This document shows, piece by piece, positions 2,969 through 60,483 of a DNA stretch of 64,000 nt. A program made the translations under genes and the position numbers. The stretch is from Escherichia coli. GTDB lineage: Bacteria; Pseudomonadota; Gammaproteobacteria; Enterobacterales; Enterobacteriaceae. The notes beneath the pieces are model-generated. The model saw nothing but the letters and a program-made list of their open reading frames with translations. It was not told the origin of the DNA and searched no databases. The stretch lies in assembly GCF_013122565.1 (NCBI RefSeq), contig NZ_CP053258.1; one strand, written 5' to 3'. Position 1 is the stretch's first letter, and each line of letters opens with the position of its first letter.

Positions 2969-3508
2969 TTAATAATAGTTAATATGGAAATTTGTTACCG
3001 CATTCACATTACCAGAAGTCGCTTTCCCCGTAGCGATATAATCAACTTTAAAAGTCAACGTCTGATCTCCATCTTGCAACAAAATGTTCCCGGTTTCTGT
3101 GTCTGGCGTGATGGCCGTTCTACCATCATTCATATACATTTGCAGGGCCACGTTTGTAGCAGCATCAGATGAGGCCTGGTTAGCAAACGCTGTAATCTGA
3201 GTAGTATCCGCAGTGCCATTAAAGGTGAACGTTGCATTTTTTGTTACGGTAGTATCACAATCTTTTAATTCAATTGGCACATCAGTTTGCACGCCAGAAA
3301 CCTGACCATTGGTTTGCAACTTCGTGGCACTAACATCTGGCAAAGTCACCACGGAATCTTTCGTCGCAGCGACCAGAGTACAAGCTGGAGCAATAACTTT
3401 ACCATTAAATGTTACTGAGCCATCCGTGATAGCATTATCATCAGCAGCCATAACGCTGGACGTTGCACATACCACAGTTATAAACGCCGTCAATACACTT
3501 TTTTTCAT
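2969..3508 (-). CDS. elfA: Fimbrial major subunit ElfA (YcbQ)
   Basis: ORF 2969..3517; start placed at MKKSVLTAFITVVCATSSVMA signal peptide (179 aa); fimbrillin-like. Confidence 0.88.
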   Translation of the reverse strand: MKKSVLTAFITVVCATSSVMAADDNAITDGSVTFNGKVIAPACTLVAATKDSVVTLPDVSATKLQTNGQVSGVQTDVPIELKDCDTTVTKNATFTFNGTADTTQITAFANQASSDAATNVALQMYMNDGRTAITPDTETGNILLQDGDQTLTFKVDYIATGKATSGNVNAVTNFHINYY

Positions 3509-3863
3509 CGTTATCATCCTGATCTCTTCGTAAATATGATAATGCCTTTAAATGACATTAGACTTAATAATAACAATAATTGTCCGCCATTTAAATCAAG
3601 CATACTAAATCCAATAAGTGACAAATCTTTAATTTATAGATTTCATGAATATTTAAATATTAACTGAACGAGTAATTCATTGATTCAACATCTAATGACT
3701 ATCCAATAAATCAATATGCGTGATATATAAAGCCCTTTCTTTAGTTTATTTTCAGAAAAAGATACACAAAATTTATATTTGGCATTTTCTTGTCTCTCCG
3801 ACAGACTGACCGAATTGTTATCAATGTTAACAAAAAAAGAACAATTGGTTATAAGGAGAGAGT

Positions 3864-4439
3864 ATGCGTGTCATCACCCTGGCGGGTAGTCCTCGCTTTC
3901 CTTCTCGCTCCAGCTCCTTGCTGGAATATGCGCGGGAAAAACTAAATGGCCTGGATGTAGAGGTTTATCACTGGAATCTGCAAAACTTCGCCCCGGAAGA
4001 TCTACTTTATGCTCGTTTCGATAGTCCGGCACTCAAGACCTTCACCGAACAGCTGCAACAGGCCGATGGGCTGATTGTCGCCACGCCTGTGTATAAAACC
4101 GCCTATTCCGGTGCGCTGAAAACCCTGCTCGACCTGCTGCCAGAACGCGCTTTGCAAGGCAAAGTGGTGCTACCGCTGGCGACGGGCGGTACGGTGGCTC
4201 ATCTGCTGGCGGTCGATTATGCCCTTAAGCCAGTTTTAAGTACGATGAAAGCCCAGGAGATCCTGCACGGCGTGTTTGCCGATGACTCACAAGTTATTGA
4301 TTACCATCACAAACCCCAGTTCACGCCAAATCTGCAAACCCGTCTTGATACCGCGCTAGAAACTTTCTGGCAGGCATTGCACCGCCGCGATGTTCAGGTT
4401 CCTGACCTTCTGTCTCTGCGAGGTAATGTCCATGCGTAA
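3864..4439 (+). CDS. ssuE: NADPH-dependent FMN reductase SsuE
   Basis: 191-aa ORF MRVITLAGSPRFPSRSS…; first gene of sulfonate-sulfur utilisation operon. Confidence 0.95.
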   Translation: MRVITLAGSPRFPSRSSSLLEYAREKLNGLDVEVYHWNLQNFAPEDLLYARFDSPALKTFTEQLQQADGLIVATPVYKTAYSGALKTLLDLLPERALQGKVVLPLATGGTVAHLLAVDYALKPVLSTMKAQEILHGVFADDSQVIDYHHKPQFTPNLQTRLDTALETFWQALHRRDVQVPDLLSLRGNVHA

Positions 4440-5391
4440 CATCATTAAACTGGCGCTGGCGGGATTGCTTAGCGTCTCTACGATTGTGGTTGCTGCAGAA
4501 TCCTCGCCTGAAGCGTTAAGGATTGGCTATCAGAAAAGCAATATCAGTTCTGTGCTGGCGAAAAATTACCAAATGCTGGAAAAACGCTATCCGCAAACAA
4601 AAATCTCGTGGGTGGAGTTTCCCGCGGGACCGCAAATGTTGGAAGCGTTAAACGTTGGCAGTATTGATCTCGGCAGTACCGGGGATATTCCGCCAATCTT
4701 TGCCCAGGCTGCCGGGGCTGATTTGGTATATGTGGGCGTCGAGCCACCGAAGCCCAAAGCCGAAGTGATTCTGGTGGCAGAAAACAGCCCGATCAAAACC
4801 GTAGCCGATCTTAAAGGTCACAAAGTTGCCTTTCAGAAAGGTTCCAGTTCACACAACCTTTTACTGCGTGCACTGCGTCAGGCCGGACTTAAGTTTACCG
4901 ATATACAACCCACTTACCTGACACCCGCTGATGCCCGCGCCGCGTTCCAGCAAGGTAACGTTGACGCCTGGGCTATCTGGGATCCCTACTACTCTGCTGC
5001 ATTATTACAGGGCGGCGTGCGGGTGTTGAAAGACGGCACCGATCTCAATCAAACCGGATCGTTTTATCTGGCAGCTCGCCCCTATGCAGAAAAAAACGGC
5101 GCTTTTATTCAGGGCGTACTGGCAACTTTCAGCAAGGCTGATGCGTTAACTCGCAGCCAGCGTGAGCAAAGCATCGCTTTACTGGCCAAAACAATGGGTT
5201 TACCGGCACCGGTGATTGCCTCGTATCTGGATCATCGTCCTCCCACCACCATCAAACCGGTGAGCGCTGAAGTTGCCGCCTTACAGCAGCAAACGGCAGA
5301 TCTGTTTTATGAAAACCGTCTGGTGCCGAAAAAAGTCGATATTCGCCAGCGCATCTGGCAGCCCACTCAACTGGAAGGAAAACAATTATGA
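4432..5391 (+). CDS. ssuA: Aliphatic sulfonate ABC transporter periplasmic binding protein SsuA
   Basis: ORF 4390..5391; start chosen at [21 protein letters not shown] signal peptide (319 aa); overlaps ssuE stop by 8 nt. Confidence 0.93.
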
Positions 5392-6533
5392 GTCTGAATA
5401 TGTTCTGGTTTTTACCGACCCACGGTGACGGGCACTATCTGGGAACGGAAGAAGGTTCACGCCCGGTTGATCACGGTTATCTGCAACAAATTGCGCAAGC
5501 GGCGGATCGTCTGGGTTATACCGGTGTGCTGATCCCAACGGGGCGCTCCTGCGAAGATGCGTGGCTGGTGGCGGCGTCGATGATCCCGGTGACGCAGCGG
5601 CTGAAGTTTCTTGTCGCCCTGCGCCCCAGCGTAACCTCACCTACCGTTGCCGCTCGCCAGGCCGCCACGCTTGACCGTCTCTCAAATGGTCGTGCGTTGT
5701 TTAATCTGGTCACAGGCAGCGATCCACAAGAGCTGGCAGGCGACGGCGTGTTCCTTGATCATAGCGAGCGCTACGAAGCCTCGGCGGAATTTACCCAGGT
5801 CTGGCGGCGCTTATTGCTGGGGGAAACCGTCGATTTCAACGGTAAACATATTCATGTGCGGGGAGCCAAACTGCTCTTCCCGCCGATTCAACAGCCGTAT
5901 CCTCCGCTTTACTTTGGCGGATCGTCAGACGTCGCCCAGGAGCTGGCGGCAGAACAAGTTGATCTCTACCTCACCTGGGGCGAACCGCCAGAACTGGTTA
6001 AAGAGAAAATCGAACAAGTGCGGGCGAAAGCTGCCGCGCATGGACGCAAAATTCGTTTCGGTATTCGTCTGCATGTGATTGTTCGTGAAACCAACGACGA
6101 AGCGTGGCAGGCCGCCGAGCGGTTAATCTCGCATCTTGATGATGAAACTATCGCCAAAGCACAGGCCGCATTCGCCCGGACGGATTCCGTAGGACAACAG
6201 CGAATGGCGGCGTTACATAATGGCAAGCGCGACAATCTGGAGATCAGCCCCAATTTATGGGCGGGCGTTGGCTTAGTGCGCGGCGGTGCCGGGACGGCGC
6301 TGGTGGGCGATGGTCCTACGGTCGCTGCGCGAATCAACGAATACGCTGCACTTGGCATCGACAGCTTTGTGCTTTCGGGCTACCCGCATCTGGAAGAAGC
6401 GTATCGGGTCGGCGAGTTACTGTTCCCGCATCTGGATGTCGCCATTCCGGAAATTCCCCAGCCGCAGCCGCTGAATCCGCAAGGCGAAGCGGTGGCAAAT
6501 GATTTTATCCCCCGTAAAGTCGCGCAAAGCTAA
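5388..6533 (+). CDS. ssuD: FMNH2-dependent alkanesulfonate monooxygenase SsuD
   Basis: 381-aa [22 protein letters not shown]…; ATGA overlap with ssuA. Confidence 0.95.
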
Positions 6534-6543
6534 GGAAGAAATA

Positions 6544-7335
6544 ATGGCAACGCCAGTGAAGAAGTGGTTATTGCGCGTTGCCCCCTGGTTTTTACCGGTG
6601 GGCATCGTGGCGGTGTGGCAACTGGCCTCCTCAGTTGGCTGGCTGTCGACGCGTATTTTGCCCTCACCGGAAGGGGTGGTGATGGCGTTCTGGACGCTCT
6701 CCGCCAGCGGCGAACTGTGGCAGCATCTGGCGATCAGCACCTGGCGGGCGCTGATTGGCTTTTCAATTGGCGGATCGCTGGGCTTGATTCTGGGACTGAT
6801 TAGCGGGCTGTCACGCTGGGGAGAACGGCTGCTGGATACCTCCATTCAGATGTTGCGCAACGTGCCGCATCTGGCGCTGATCCCGCTGGTGATTTTGTGG
6901 TTTGGCATTGATGAATCCGCAAAAATCTTTCTGGTGGCGCTCGGTACGCTATTCCCCATTTATATCAACACCTGGCACGGCATCCGTAATATCGATCGCG
7001 GGTTGGTGGAAATGGCGCGTAGCTATGGATTATCCGGCATACCGCTGTTTATCCATGTGATCCTGCCTGGTGCCCTGCCCTCAATTATGGTCGGCGTGCG
7101 TTTTGCGTTGGGCCTGATGTGGCTGACGCTGATTGTTGCCGAAACCATTTCTGCCAATTCAGGCATTGGTTATCTGGCGATGAATGCGCGGGAGTTTTTG
7201 CAAACGGACGTGGTGGTAGTCGCTATTATTCTTTACGCCTTGCTCGGCAAACTTGCTGACGTCAGCGCGCAGCTGTTAGAGCGCCTCTGGTTGCGCTGGA
7301 ATCCGGCTTATCATTTGAAGGAGGCCACGGTATGA
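6544..7335 (+). CDS. ssuC: Aliphatic sulfonate ABC transporter permease SsuC
   Basis: ORF 6499..7335; start at [19 protein letters not shown] (263 aa); multi-TM permease. Confidence 0.92.
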
Positions 7336-8099
7336 ATACTGCTCGTCTGAACCAGGGCACGCCATTGTTGCTCAATGCAGTAAGCAAACATTACGCGGAA
7401 AATATCGTCCTGAACCAACTGGATTTACATATTCCGGCAGGTCAGTTTGTGGCGGTGGTGGGCCGCAGCGGTGGTGGCAAAAGTACCCTGCTGCGCCTGC
7501 TGGCAGGGCTGGAAACGCCAACCGCTGGCGATGTGTTAGCGGGCACCACACCGCTGGCTGAAATTCAGGAAGACACGCGAATGATGTTTCAGGATGCGCG
7601 TCTGCTGCCGTGGAAATCGGTGATTGATAACGTTGGGTTAGGCCTTAAAGGCCAGTGGCGCGATGCCGCGCGTCGGGCGTTGGCTGCGGTAGGACTGGAG
7701 AATCGCGCCGGGGAATGGCCTGCCGCACTTTCAGGCGGGCAGAAACAGCGAGTGGCGCTGGCAAGAGCATTGATTCATCGACCGGGTTTATTGTTGCTTG
7801 ATGAACCGCTCGGGGCACTGGACGCCTTAACGCGACTCGAGATGCAGGATTTGATTGTGTCACTTTGGCAGGAGCACGGCTTTACCGTACTGTTGGTGAC
7901 GCATGATGTGAGCGAAGCGGTAGCAATGGCTGACCGGGTGTTATTAATTGAAGAGGGAAAAATTGGTCTGGATTTGACAGTGGATATCCCCCGTCCGCGC
8001 CGGTTAGGGTCAGTGCGATTAGCGGAGCTGGAAGCGGAAGTGTTGCAAAGGGTGATGCAGCGTGGTGAATCTGAAACTCGCCTGAGAAAACAGGGATAA
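7332..8099 (+). CDS. ssuB: Aliphatic sulfonate ABC transporter ATPase SsuB
   Basis: 255-aa ORF with Walker [10 protein letters not shown] and ABC signature LSGGQKQR; ATGA overlap with ssuC. Confidence 0.95.
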
Positions 8100-8104
8100 A
8101 TTCC

Positions 8105-8143
8105 CCGAATGGCGGCGCTATTGCCGCCATTCGGTTATTTATT
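8105..8143 (+). terminator. Rho-independent terminator after ssuB (hairpin shared with convergent pepN)
   Basis: 12-bp perfect stem CCGAATGGCGGC / GCCGCCATTCGG with 6-nt loop, followed by TTATTTATT. Confidence 0.6.
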
Positions 8144-10754
8144 AAGCCAGTGCTTTGGTGATCTTCTCGTACAGATCGCCAGAGAGATTTTCCAGCCCTT
8201 TCAACTGTTCCAGCGCCGCGCGCATTTTCTCCTGACGTTTGGCATCATAACGTTTCAGGCGAATCAGCGGTTCAATCAGACGTGAAGCTACCTGCGGGTT
8301 ACGGCTGTTGAGGTCGGTAAGCATTTCCACCAGGAACTGGTAACCGCTGCCATCTTCGGCATGGAACGCTGCCGGGTTGCTGCCCGCAAACGCACCAATC
8401 AACGAACGAATACGGTTCGGGTTGCTCATGGTAAATGAGCGATGCTGCAACAGACCACGCACCGTCTCCAGCACATTCGCCGCCGGGCTGGTGGCTTGCA
8501 GGATAAACCATTTATCCATCACCAGACCATCCTGATGCCACTTGTCGTCGTACTCCTGCATCAGCGCGTCACGGCAAGGCAGCTGTGCAGCAACCGCCGC
8601 AGAAAGCGCTGCCAGCGCATCGGTCATATTGTTTGCTTCATGGTATTGCTTGCTCACCAGCACGTCAGCCAGATGCGTTTCACCAAAAGCAAGGAAGCGC
8701 AGGCAGGCATTACGCAGAGTGCGTTTTGCAATATCTTCATGCTCAACACGGTACTCGCTCTGGTAATTCGCGTTGTAAATAGCCAGGAGCTCATCCGCCA
8801 GTTCAGTCGCCAGAGTACGAGTGAGTGCTTCGCGTACTTCGGCAATAGCAATCGGGTCGATGATATCGAACAGTTCAGCCATTTCATTGACAGAAGGCAG
8901 CGTCAGGATTTCTGCCGCCAGCGCCGGATCAATCTTCTCATCGAGCAGCACCGCGCGGAAAGCGTCAGCCACATGTACCGGCAGAGACAGCGGCTGCCCT
9001 TGCTGATGACGGGCGACGTTCAGCTTGATGTAGGTTGCCAGCAAACTTTGCGCCGCATCCCAACGGGAGAAATCATTACGCGCATGACGCATCAGGAAGG
9101 TCAGTTGCTGATCGCTCCACTTATATTCCAGTTTCACTGGCGCAGAGAATTCGCACAGCAGCGCAGGCACCGGCTGGAAGTAGACATTATCAAAAACAAA
9201 GGTCTGTTCCGCCTGAGTGACGTTCAGCACGGAATTCACCGGATGACCGCCTTTCTGCAACGGGATCACTTTGCCTTCGTTATCATACAGTTCGATGGCA
9301 AACGGAATATGCAGCGGCTGTTTTTCTGCCTGATCCGGCGTGGCTGGCGTGCGCTGGCTGATGGTCAGGGTGTACTGCTCGGTTTCCGGATTGTAGTCGT
9401 CTTTGACGGTCACAACCGGCGTACCGGACTGGCTGTACCAACGGCGGAAATGGGAGAGATCGACATTCGACGCATCTTCCATCGCCTGCACAAAGTCGTC
9501 GCAGGTTGCCGCGCTACCATCATGGCGCTCGAAATAGAGTTGCATCCCTTTCTGGAAGTTTTCCTCGCCAAGCAGGGTGTGGATCATGCGAATCACTTCC
9601 GCGCCCTTCTCGTAAACGGTCAGGGTGTAGAAGTTGTTCATCTCAATGACCATATCCGGGCGGATTGGGTGCGCCATCGGGCTGGCGTCTTCCGCAAACT
9701 GCAATCCGCGCATGGTGCGCACATTATTGATGCGGTTAACTGCACGGGAACCAAGGTCAGAGCTGAATTCCTGATCGCGGAAGACGGTTAAACCTTCTTT
9801 CAGGCTGAGCTGGAACCAGTCGCGGCAGGTCACTCGGTTACCGGTCCAGTTATGGAAATATTCATGGCCGATAACGCGTTCAATATCGAGGTAATCTTTG
9901 TCGGTGGCAGTATCGGTGCGGGCCAGCACATATTTGGAGTTAAAGATATTCAGCCCCTTATTCTCCATTGCGCCCATATTGAAGAAATCCACCGCGACGA
10001 TCATATAGATGTCGAGGTCATACTCCAGGCCAAAGCGTTCTTCATCCCATTTCATGGAGTTTTTCAGCGAGGTCATCGCCCACGGCGCGCGATCAAGGTT
10101 GCCGCGATCGACGTACAGCTCCAGTGCTACTTCGCGACCAGAACGCGTGGTAAAGGTATCGCGCAGTACATCAAAGTCGCCTGCCACCAGCGCAAACAGG
10201 TAGCACGGTTTCGGGAACGGGTCCTGCCACTGTACCCAATGACGTCCGTTTTCCAGTTCGCCTTGTGCAACGCGGTTACCGTTGGAAAGCAGGAAGGGAT
10301 ATTTGGTTTTATCGGCAATAATTTTGGTGGTAAAACGAGCCAGTACGTCCGGGCGGTCGAGATAATACGTAATGTGGCGGAAACCTTCGGCTTCACACTG
10401 GGTGCAAAGCGCATCGCCTGACTGATAAAGCCCTTCCAGCGCCGTATTCGCCGCCGGGCTTATTTCATTAATGATCTTAAGCGTAAAACGCTCCGGCAAA
10501 TTACTGATGACCAGTGCGCCCTCTTCTTCTTTCCAGGCGGTCCACGGCTCATCATTAATATGAACAGAAACCAGTTTGAGGTCTTCGCCGTTGAGACGAA
10601 GCGGAGCATCTGATGCACCATGACGGACAGCCTGGCTGACCGCGGTAACGACCGTCTTTTGCGCGTCGAGGTCAAAGGTCAAGTCAATATCAGTAATCTG
10701 GTAATCCGGCGCACGATAATCGTGACGGTATTTGGCTTGTGGCTGTTGAGTCAT
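8142..10754 (-). CDS. pepN: Aminopeptidase N
   Basis: 870-aa ORF MTQQPQAKYRHDYRAPDYQITD…; M1 zinc motif HEYFHNW…E present. Confidence 0.97.
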   Translation of the reverse strand: MTQQPQAKYRHDYRAPDYQITDIDLTFDLDAQKTVVTAVSQAVRHGASDAPLRLNGEDLKLVSVHINDEPWTAWKEEEGALVISNLPERFTLKIINEISPAANTALEGLYQSGDALCTQCEAEGFRHITYYLDRPDVLARFTTKIIADKTKYPFLLSNGNRVAQGELENGRHWVQWQDPFPKPCYLFALVAGDFDVLRDTFTTRSGREVALELYVDRGNLDRAPWAMTSLKNSMKWDEERFGLEYDLDIYMIVAVDFFNMGAMENKGLNIFNSKYVLARTDTATDKDYLDIERVIGHEYFHNWTGNRVTCRDWFQLSLKEGLTVFRDQEFSSDLGSRAVNRINNVRTMRGLQFAEDASPMAHPIRPDMVIEMNNFYTLTVYEKGAEVIRMIHTLLGEENFQKGMQLYFERHDGSAATCDDFVQAMEDASNVDLSHFRRWYSQSGTPVVTVKDDYNPETEQYTLTISQRTPATPDQAEKQPLHIPFAIELYDNEGKVIPLQKGGHPVNSVLNVTQAEQTFVFDNVYFQPVPALLCEFSAPVKLEYKWSDQQLTFLMRHARNDFSRWDAAQSLLATYIKLNVARHQQGQPLSLPVHVADAFRAVLLDEKIDPALAAEILTLPSVNEMAELFDIIDPIAIAEVREALTRTLATELADELLAIYNANYQSEYRVEHEDIAKRTLRNACLRFLAFGETHLADVLVSKQYHEANNMTDALAALSAAVAAQLPCRDALMQEYDDKWHQDGLVMDKWFILQATSPAANVLETVRGLLQHRSFTMSNPNRIRSLIGAFAGSNPAAFHAEDGSGYQFLVEMLTDLNSRNPQVASRLIEPLIRLKRYDAKRQEKMRAALEQLKGLENLSGDLYEKITKALA

Positions 10755-16871: not shown

Positions 16872-16897
16872 AAGCCCGCTGAAAAGCGGGCTTTTTT
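16872..16897 (+). terminator. Rho-independent terminator after aspC (in convergent gap with gloC)
   Basis: AAGCCCGCT-gaaa-AGCGGGCTT hairpin followed by TTTTT. Confidence 0.7.
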
Positions 16898-60245: not shown

Positions 60246-60415
60246 AATGGCTCACTCAAGCTTGCTCACGATTGATTCCAGTAACAAACCGTATTGTGTA
60301 ATTATTTCTATAGCAGTTCGCTATATAGGCTTGTATACATCGAATGATTTGAAAATCAAAGAGATAGGTAGATTTTCACTCGAAAGTAGTATTACGTGTA
60401 AGTGAGGAGTAATTA

Positions 60416-60429
60416 TTGTTCGGTATCAA
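60416..60429 (-). promoter_or_regulatory. FNR box of the dmsABC promoter
   Basis: On dmsA strand reads TTGAT-accg-AACAA (TTGAT-N4-ATCAA family), about 175 nt upstream of dmsA ATG. Confidence 0.5.
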
Positions 60430-60430
60430 A

Positions 60431-60462
60431 GGGAGACAAAAAAAGCGCCCGCAGGCGCTTTT
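60431..60462 (-). terminator. Rho-independent terminator after serS
   Basis: AAAGCGCC-cgca-GGCGCTTT hairpin; on serS strand followed by UUUUUUGUCUCC. Confidence 0.65.
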
Positions 60463-60483
60463 TAGATTCAGAAAAATTGGGTA

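Follow-up and report, generated by a model that had tools for sequence, protein, structure and literature searches.

The ssu operon of Escherichia coli, whose function has been described, is induced solely under sulfur starvation (PMC6906117). It is a well-known operon, and the layout of its junctions is standard and has been annotated before. The E. coli gene pairs known for termination–reinitiation (hyfHI, astDB, ydbH/ynbE as well as menDH; Huber et al. 2019, 2023) are co-directional, overlap by 4 nt (a spacing of −4) and carry the Shine-Dalgarno (SD) site of the downstream gene inside the upstream one. Four of the five native −4 pairs tested in E. coli were coupled (Huber et al. 2019). More generally, spacings of −8 to +10 are taken as predictive of termination–reinitiation and are 4.5-fold enriched for heteromeric complexes in E. 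coli (PMC10666635). Coupling is efficient near −4 to +3 and lasts at short positive spacings (PMC12548453), while −8 overlaps are rated less efficient for reinitiation than −4 (PMC12548453, PMC10666635), and Huber et al. (2023) read the +9 to +12 class as likely independent initiation (PMC10666635). Our literature search for coupling or polarity in ssuEADCB returned no experiment and, among the papers listed, no study of its translation.

In the window analysed here (the whole 64,000-nt stretch of E. coli contig NZ_CP053258.1), five co-directional genes lie at 3864–8099 in the order ssuE-ssuA-ssuD-ssuC-ssuB, which is the same in E. coli genomes. This is the canonical operon for the use of aliphatic sulfonates as a sulfur source, and its features are listed in Table 1. 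All five products exceed the curated NCBIfam cut-offs: SsuE (NF007859, 354 bits versus 225, full length), SsuA (NF008588, 644 versus 299, profile positions 1–318 of 319), SsuD (TIGR03565, 632 versus 518), SsuC (NF008470, 580 versus 347, profile positions 1–263) and SsuB (NF008420, 498 versus 395). The coordinates of ssuE match the PGAP annotation of strain S10, and the chain in PDB 2X26 starts with SPEALRIG, which is residue 25 of SsuA. The K-12 operon (b0937–b0933) has the same gene order, the same protein lengths, all four junction strings and spacings, and elf and pepN as flanks; identity is 96.9% at the nucleotide level over 4.8 kb, and the differences are solely allelic. The genes appear to form a single transcription unit ending at the hairpin 3′ of ssuB. 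The interior of the operon shows no excess of promoter-like or terminator-like matches over shuffled sequence, and an Rfam search gave no match in the operon. For the Cbl/CysB-dependent promoter expected of such an operon, the search yielded only a weak promoter-like match, at 3751–3779.

Table 1. Genes, junctions, SD sites and rejected start codons of the ssu locus (window positions; junctions are read from the sequence, and duplex energies refer to the anti-SD)
Feature	Position	Strand	Description
ssuE	3864–4439	+	NADPH-dependent FMN reductase, 191 aa; stop TAA 4437–4439; ORF
ssuA	4432–5391	+	periplasmic sulfonate-binding protein precursor, 319 aa
ssuD	5388–6533	+	FMNH2-dependent alkanesulfonate monooxygenase, 381 aa
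ssuC	6544–7335	+	ABC transporter permease, 263 aa
ssuB	7332–8099	+	ABC transporter ATP-binding protein, 255 aa
Terminator-like hairpin	8105–8144 with T-rich tail (hairpin 8105–8134)	+	13-bp stem; between ssuB and convergent pepN
ssuE/ssuA overlap ATGCGTAA	4432–4439	+	8 nt (−8); ssuA start and ssuE stop
ssuA/ssuD overlap ATGA	5388–5391	+	−4
ssuD/ssuC spacer	6534–6543	+	10 nt (+10)
ssuC/ssuB overlap ATGA	7332–7335	+	−4
SD of ssuE ATAAGGAGA	3851–3859	+	−9.3 kcal/mol at −13 to −5
SD of ssuA CGAGGTA	4419–4425	+	within ssuE; −7.2 kcal/mol at −13 to −7 from 4432
SD of ssuD GAAGGAA	5374–5380	+	within ssuA; −5.7 kcal/mol at −14 to −8
SD of ssuC CTAAGGAA	6530–6537	+	−6.0 kcal/mol; includes ssuD stop TAA (6531–6533)
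SD of ssuB GAAGGAGGC	7317–7325	+	within ssuC; −11.7 kcal/mol, strongest of the operon; conserved
Rejected ATG, long ssuA ORF	4390–4392	+	in frame; −2.5 kcal/mol, no SD
Rejected second in-frame ATG	4426–4428	+	−14 from ssuE stop
Rejected ATG, long ssuC ORF	6499–6501	+	SD −5.1 kcal/mol at 2-nt spacing; weak, mis-spaced

The sequence-only reading of this stretch had described an 8-nt overlap at ssuE/ssuA, ATGA overlaps at ssuA/ssuD and ssuC/ssuB and a 10-nt gap at ssuD/ssuC, and this description is correct to the base. The same layout is present in the RefSeq/PGAP annotations of four E. coli strains (S10, the K-12 strain TOP10, Z0117EC0055 and PEC1021), with 10 or 11 nt between ssuD and ssuC. That gap had been singled out as the one junction without overlap. 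The gap is real, but it is not a true exception to coupling, since the ssuD stop lies inside the ssuC SD and the spacing falls within the coupling-permissive range of the literature.

We also observed that the spacings are ordinary. The commonest overlaps in E. coli are −4, −1 and −8 (Huber et al. 2023, PMC10666635), the same three spacings are reported as enriched elsewhere (PMC12548453), and of 2,987 unidirectional E. coli pairs 707 fall between −8 and +6 and 203 between +9 and +12 (PMC10666635). As the ssu spacings belong to these commonest classes, three overlaps in four junctions are unremarkable. The same 50 kb of strain S10 holds 11 further same-strand pairs less than 60 nt apart, of which 5 overlap, and at this rate at least three overlaps in four junctions are expected about one time in four. 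The overlap pattern is not beyond chance expectation.

The start codons of the five genes are at 3864, 4432, 5388, 6544 and 7332, and we give our reading of the operon as a whole, with the mode of initiation proposed below, a probability of roughly 85%. The chosen starts have SD duplexes of −5.7 to −11.7 kcal/mol at −15 to −5, against an operon-wide background mean of −2.9. Each downstream gene has its own SD within the final 15 nt of the gene before it or, for ssuC, spanning the upstream stop, and this is conserved in relatives; GAGG or AAGGAG is present at the position of the ssuA SD in 16 loci. In published in vitro retapamulin profiling (INRI-seq; PMC9825163, Table S2), which used isolated fragments from −30 to +150 of the K-12 sequence, peaks are seen at the annotated starts of ssuE, ssuD, ssuC and ssuB with no upstream translation. 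The signal is 42–58 CPM for ssuD (a peak in all five replicates), 16–28 CPM for ssuC and 74–101 CPM for ssuB, the strongest peak of the operon; ssuA, the only ssu gene without a peak, gave zero in all five. In vivo Ribo-RET values (Meydan et al., copied in the same Table S2) are zero for all five genes, presumably because the operon is induced under sulfur starvation only, and the TRAINSPOTTER N-terminomics supplements hold no ssu entries. The shorter starts had been favoured on account of the overlaps. The choice itself stands on the SD sites, the stops found in relatives and the NCBIfam profiles, but the overlaps are not the main reason for it. Confirmation of the standard ssuA and ssuC starts has little import beyond annotation quality.

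Translational coupling, which the sequence-only reading had drawn from the overlaps, is plausible from the spacings and SD sites. In its strict form it seems unlikely for ssuD, ssuC and ssuB: on isolated fragments these starts are used de novo, which shows that initiation there can do without coupling, at least in vitro. The INRI-seq data thus speak against strict coupling of these three genes and are compatible with strict coupling of ssuA. Overlap alone is no proof of coupling, since in vitro three of the four downstream starts are used independently. Most likely, initiation at every ssu start would be ordinary and SD-driven, and would be supplemented by termination–reinitiation by ribosomes leaving the upstream gene. 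The junctions are all co-directional, and their spacings (−8, −4, +10 and −4) place them within the range in which coupling works in E. coli. With each downstream SD this close to the upstream stop, or across it, a ribosome that ends one gene sits on the binding site from which the following gene is translated. The ssu operon has in common with the pairs of Huber et al. the co-directional −4 arrangement with an internal SD, and the products of ssuC and ssuB are subunits of one complex, a class enriched among short-spaced pairs; it differs in that coupling has been measured in those pairs, whereas in ssu it is plausible, with three downstream starts active on their own in vitro. A model in which upstream translation opens RNA structure found no support, as the −30 to +15 region around each start folds no more stably than its dinucleotide-shuffled versions (z 0.0 to +1.4) and no TIR is unusually structured.

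The overlaps might instead be devoid of function, left behind as the genome was compacted and stop codons drifted, with purely independent SD-driven initiation. This is possible, although we lean against it. It is favoured by the ability of ssuD, ssuC and ssuB to initiate de novo in vitro, by the presence of an SD of its own at every start and by the genome-wide abundance of these spacing classes. The comparison of 31 ssuEADCB loci bears on both sides. The −8 at ssuE/ssuA and the −4 at ssuA/ssuD (16 of 31 loci) are confined to the Escherichia-Citrobacter-Enterobacter group, and both are invariant in all 16 of its members, which argues against absence of function; ATGNNTAA/TAG at ssuE/ssuA is conserved in Escherichia, Citrobacter, Leclercia, Enterobacter, Pluralibacter and Cedecea. 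In Pantoea, Erwinia, Serratia, Rahnella and Pseudomonas these two junctions are gaps of 9–101 nt. The range from −8 to +101 between genera favours absence of function, and the replacement of overlaps by gaps means that the system works without them. As judged from these 31 loci, the two overlaps are a trait of the Escherichia-Citrobacter-Enterobacter lineage.

The two downstream junctions are kept more widely. In 28 of the 31 loci ssuC follows ssuD at a spacing of +7 to +11, usually with the ssuD stop within the ssuC SD (TAAGGAG), and in the alignment of 22 of these junctions, from Escherichia to Serratia and Rahnella, most have the stop followed by GGAG or GAGG. (The Stenoxybacter ssuC row of the table was not used, as its automatic start at +191 is misplaced and the ATG is actually at +95.) At ssuC/ssuB, ATGA (−4) is present in 29 of 31 loci. 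This holds across Enterobacterales, Pseudomonas and Stenoxybacter despite differing SsuC C-termini, which, like the coupling measured in native −4 pairs and the lack of independent initiation of ssuA in vitro, stands against absence of function. The small gaps found there instead in the sampled Betaproteobacteria, Firmicutes and Alphaproteobacteria point the other way, at least for the first two. Pseudomonas ssuEADCB(F) shares the gene order, an ssuD/ssuC spacing of +9 and the ssuC/ssuB ATGA with E. coli, but its ssuE and ssuA are 90–101 nt apart and its ssuA and ssuD 25 nt apart. For selection on an overlap, ssuC/ssuB is the best case, its products forming one transporter complex. The loci together give a small comparative view of junction evolution, with a deeply conserved ssuC/ssuB ATGA beside the lineage-specific overlaps at ssuE/ssuA and ssuA/ssuD.

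Translation of ssuA could also depend strictly on that of ssuE through the 8-nt overlap, with the other three junctions loosely coupled or uncoupled. We hold this to be less likely than not. The missing INRI-seq signal argues for it, as the ssuA template was present at 38.5 CPM, comparable to the 32.8 CPM of ssuB with its strong peak, and of the five SD sites that of ssuA is predicted to be the least accessible (0.22). However, about 30% of E. coli genes are without an INRI-seq peak, for which many causes are possible, and the ssuA TIR is not unusually stable (z = 0.0). The lower rating of −8 than of −4 for reinitiation and the distance of 10–101 nt from ssuE to ssuA in Pantoea, Serratia and Pseudomonas also weigh against it. 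In an evolutionary form, which we consider rather improbable, ssuA of the Escherichia-Citrobacter-Enterobacter group would no longer initiate on its own and would be obligately coupled to ssuE via the conserved overlap, ssuA of Pantoea, Serratia and Pseudomonas being uncoupled. If so, how much binding protein is made would depend on how far the reductase gene is translated.

The longer ORFs, from 4390 in the ssuA frame and 6499 in the ssuC frame, had been noted correctly and are present in the ORF list; both begin with an in-frame ATG and are stop-free up to the chosen start in this window, and both lie beyond the reach of INRI-seq, whose oligos begin at −30. It is nevertheless very improbable that either is real; comparison with relatives effectively refutes them, and they are six-frame artefacts. 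Neither has a usable SD, and in relatives the extensions are absent or lost to in-frame stops or frame shifts. Citrobacter sp. FP75, Enterobacter cloacae and also Enterobacter sp. ENT03 have stops in the ssuA frame between 4390 and the chosen start; the ssuC extension is closed even within the species, in E. coli Z0117EC0055 and PEC1021, as it is in most other genera. The NCBIfam profiles begin at the internal Met residues, namely residue 15 of the long SsuA (4432) and residue 16 of the long SsuC (6544). The ATG at 4390 is part of the GAT-GTT (Asp-Val) codon pair of ssuE, and a hydrophobic extension of 14 residues before MRNIIK would probably spoil the SsuA signal peptide. The second in-frame ATG at 4426, which had been missed in the first reading, was rejected too; it shares the GAGG site with 4432 at a spacing of merely ∼1–2 nt, and it is an ATG in E. 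coli only, relatives having TTG or no start codon there. Within ssuA itself, a dimorphic patch at window positions 4500–4600 encodes the PEC1021-type protein variant, not the K-12 type.

The five genes form the already known ssuEADCB operon and carry its standard annotation (table). The arrangement described in the sequence-only reading, an 8-nt ssuE/ssuA overlap, ATGA overlaps at ssuA/ssuD and ssuC/ssuB and a 10-nt ssuD/ssuC gap, was borne out by the window sequence and by the PGAP annotations of four E. coli genomes (S10, TOP10 (K-12), Z0117EC0055 and PEC1021). The layout is identical in these, the ssuD/ssuC gap being 10 or 11 nt. The ssu region (4.8 kb) has a match, with 90-97.5% identity, in 5,424 of the 5,426 complete E. 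coli genomes.

Genes and junctions of the ssuEADCB operon (+ strand), from the window sequence; anti-SD duplex energies are for the chosen starts, INRI-seq values are from Table S2 of PMC9825163, and spacings are those in the loci compared
Feature	Coordinates	Window sequence	Anti-SD duplex (kcal/mol)	INRI-seq CPM at annotated start (replicates)	Spacing across loci
ssuE	3864-4439	ATG start, single terminal stop	-9.3	14-18 (5/5)	
ssuE/ssuA		8 nt common to both, ATGCGTAA			-8 in 16/16 loci of Escherichia, Citrobacter, Leclercia, Enterobacter, Pluralibacter, Cedecea (strings ATGCGTAA, ATGCTTAA, ATGTTTAA); +10 to +101 in Pantoea, Erwinia, Serratia, Rahnella, Pseudomonas, two Neisseriales
ssuA	4432-5391	ATG start, single terminal stop	-7.2	0 (0/5)	
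ssuA/ssuD		4 nt common to both, ATGA			-4 in the 16 loci with -8 at ssuE/ssuA; -1 to +66 in others
ssuD	5388-6533	ATG start, single terminal stop	-5.7	42-58 (5/5)	
ssuD/ssuC	6534-6543	10-nt spacer			+7 to +11 in 28/31
ssuC	6544-7335	ATG start, single terminal stop	-6.0	16-28 (5/5)	
ssuC/ssuB		4 nt common to both, ATGA			ATGA in 29/31, including Pseudomonas and Stenoxybacter
ssuB	7332-8099	ATG start, single terminal stop	-11.7	74-101 (5/5)	

The six-frame list indeed contains long ORFs from ATG 4390 (ssuA frame) and ATG 6499 (ssuC frame), and the earlier preference for the internal starts was right: 4432 and 6544 are favoured by four independent lines, namely Shine-Dalgarno (SD) sites, comparison with relatives, family profiles and the signal peptide. 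A third in-frame ATG at 4426 (MSMRNIIK...) had been overlooked. We scored the anti-SD duplex energy in the 20 nt preceding each candidate start (operon-wide background mean, -2.9 kcal/mol), and the SD lies at -15 to -5 for every chosen start. The value for 4390 (-2.5 kcal/mol) is at background level. The 6499 ATG scored -5.1 kcal/mol, but through an interrupted GGUGG just 2 nt away, and 4426 reached -7.2 kcal/mol by using ssuA's own GAGG with nearly no spacer.

Among relatives, Citrobacter sp. FP75, Enterobacter cloacae and Enterobacter sp. ENT03 have an ssuA-frame ORF that opens only 3-24 nt ahead of the conserved ATG, so that a 4390-like start is impossible there; an ATG at the 4426 position was found in E. 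coli only. The ssuC-frame extension is closed in most other genera and also in E. coli Z0117EC0055 and PEC1021, where the spacer is 1 nt longer and the frame therefore shifted. Position 1 of the NCBIfam profiles for SsuA (NF008588) and SsuC (NF008470) aligned to residues 15 and 16 of the respective long ORFs. The SsuA N-terminus from 4432 looks like a signal peptide, which a 14-residue hydrophobic extension would, we infer, disturb; crystallised E. coli SsuA (2X26) begins with SPEALRIG, residue 25 counted from 4432.

The junction pattern is not unusual for E. coli. Unidirectional pairs most often have a spacing of -4, with -1 and -8 next in frequency; 707 of 2,987 pairs lie at -8 to +6, and a secondary peak at +9 to +12 holds 203 (Huber et al. 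2023, PMC10666635). Brown and Wade 2025 (PMC12548453) likewise name -4, -1 and -8 as enriched motifs. Of the 11 other same-strand pairs less than 60 nt apart in the 50 kb surrounding the S10 operon, 5 overlap (mukB/E, mukE/F, mukF/cmoM, kdsB/ycaR and lpxK/msbA).

We scanned for SsuD in one genome per species and obtained 80 loci; counting the window and the four E. coli genomes, 31 of these carry all five genes in the order E-A-D-C-B. Two of the three overlaps are traits of a single enterobacterial lineage. The ssuC/ssuB ATGA is replaced by small gaps in the sampled Betaproteobacteria, Firmicutes and Alphaproteobacteria. In most ssuD/ssuC junctions aligned, GGAG or GAGG immediately follows the ssuD stop codon, so that TAAGGAG or TGAGGAG doubles as stop and SD. 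This fusion and the conserved spacing make the gapped junction a conserved arrangement in its own right rather than an exception; a ribosome terminating at the ssuD stop covers the ssuC ribosome-binding site. Sorting the junctions into three with an overlap and one with a gap has little functional meaning.

A literature search found nothing on translation of the ssuEADCB operon. INRI-seq, a cell-free retapamulin profiling of a synthetic pool in which each E. coli K-12 gene is represented by a single RNA spanning about -30 to +150 (Hör et al. 2022, PMC9825163), gave peaks at four of the five ssu starts. Since its oligos begin at -30, the equivalents of 4390 and 6499 lie outside them. The peaks indicate that the ssuD, ssuC and ssuB ribosome-binding sites can recruit ribosomes without upstream translation, which argues against strict coupling there. 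The lack of a peak at ssuA, whose template abundance was 38.5 CPM (ssuB, 32.8 CPM), is compatible with dependence on ssuE translation, and also with membership of the ~30% of genes that are peakless for various reasons. In vivo Ribo-RET values (Meydan et al. 2019, within INRI-seq Table S2) are 0 for all five genes, as would be explained by up-regulation of the operon solely under sulfur starvation (PMC6906117). Folding of -30 to +15 around each ssu start revealed no structure above shuffled controls (z 0.0 to +1.4), and hence no sign of an RNA-unfolding switch. Translational coupling, as proposed earlier, is reasonable by analogy with the native -4 pairs of Huber et al. 2019, four of five of which were coupled; it is probably partial, adding to independent SD-driven initiation.

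INRI-seq Table S3 also lists a putative extra initiation site at an out-of-frame GTG (3868-3870, +), 4 nt past the ssuE ATG (ATGCGTG), with 107 CPM in 5/5 replicates against 14-18 CPM at the annotated start. It falls within the +/-3 nt tolerance of the method and may be the same initiation complex.

The differences from K-12 and S10 cluster in two patches of ssuA: 4500-4600 has 18-19 per 100 nt, 5100-5300 has 10, and most of the remaining 100-nt bins have 0-5. In the first patch, a 14-residue window peptide replaces K-12 GSIGMVLAKSHQLL, PEC1021 shares the window protein variant, and the DNA at 4470-4650 is at most about 92% identical to any complete E. coli genome. This patch looks like a dimorphic, recombining segment close to the mature SsuA N-terminus. 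The top identity among the 5,426 genomes was 97.5% over the ssu region (3600-8400 tested) and 98.7% across the 24 kb from mukB to aroA, which are core genes (20000-44000 tested); the window lineage thus seems unrepresented among them, and is possibly Shigella or an outlying Escherichia lineage.

Upstream of ssuE, the start of the fimbrial gene elfA (3508-3517, - strand) contains a pair of in-frame ATGs at a distance of 9 nt (MITMKKSVL). PGAP chose the inner one in S10, and INRI-seq peaks were about 150 CPM at the annotated start and 75 CPM at the -9 ATG. The elf genes adjoin ssuE in the window, S10 and K-12; in Z0117EC0055 pyrD lies directly upstream of ssuE and the elf genes are absent there. 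Another ssu locus (CAAEEE010000380.1, 'MAG: Clostridia bacterium HGM13476'), with E. coli junctions and SsuD and SsuC 99-100% identical to those of the window, almost certainly comes from Escherichia and was mis-binned into a Clostridia MAG. Between aspC and gloC (S10 annotation), the window lacks about 170 nt relative to S10; the alignment breaks at about 16874-16892 and restarts 172 nt on in S10. The sole Rfam match in the window is the enterobacterial sRNA STnc130 (60336-60470, +; 138.8 bits, full length).
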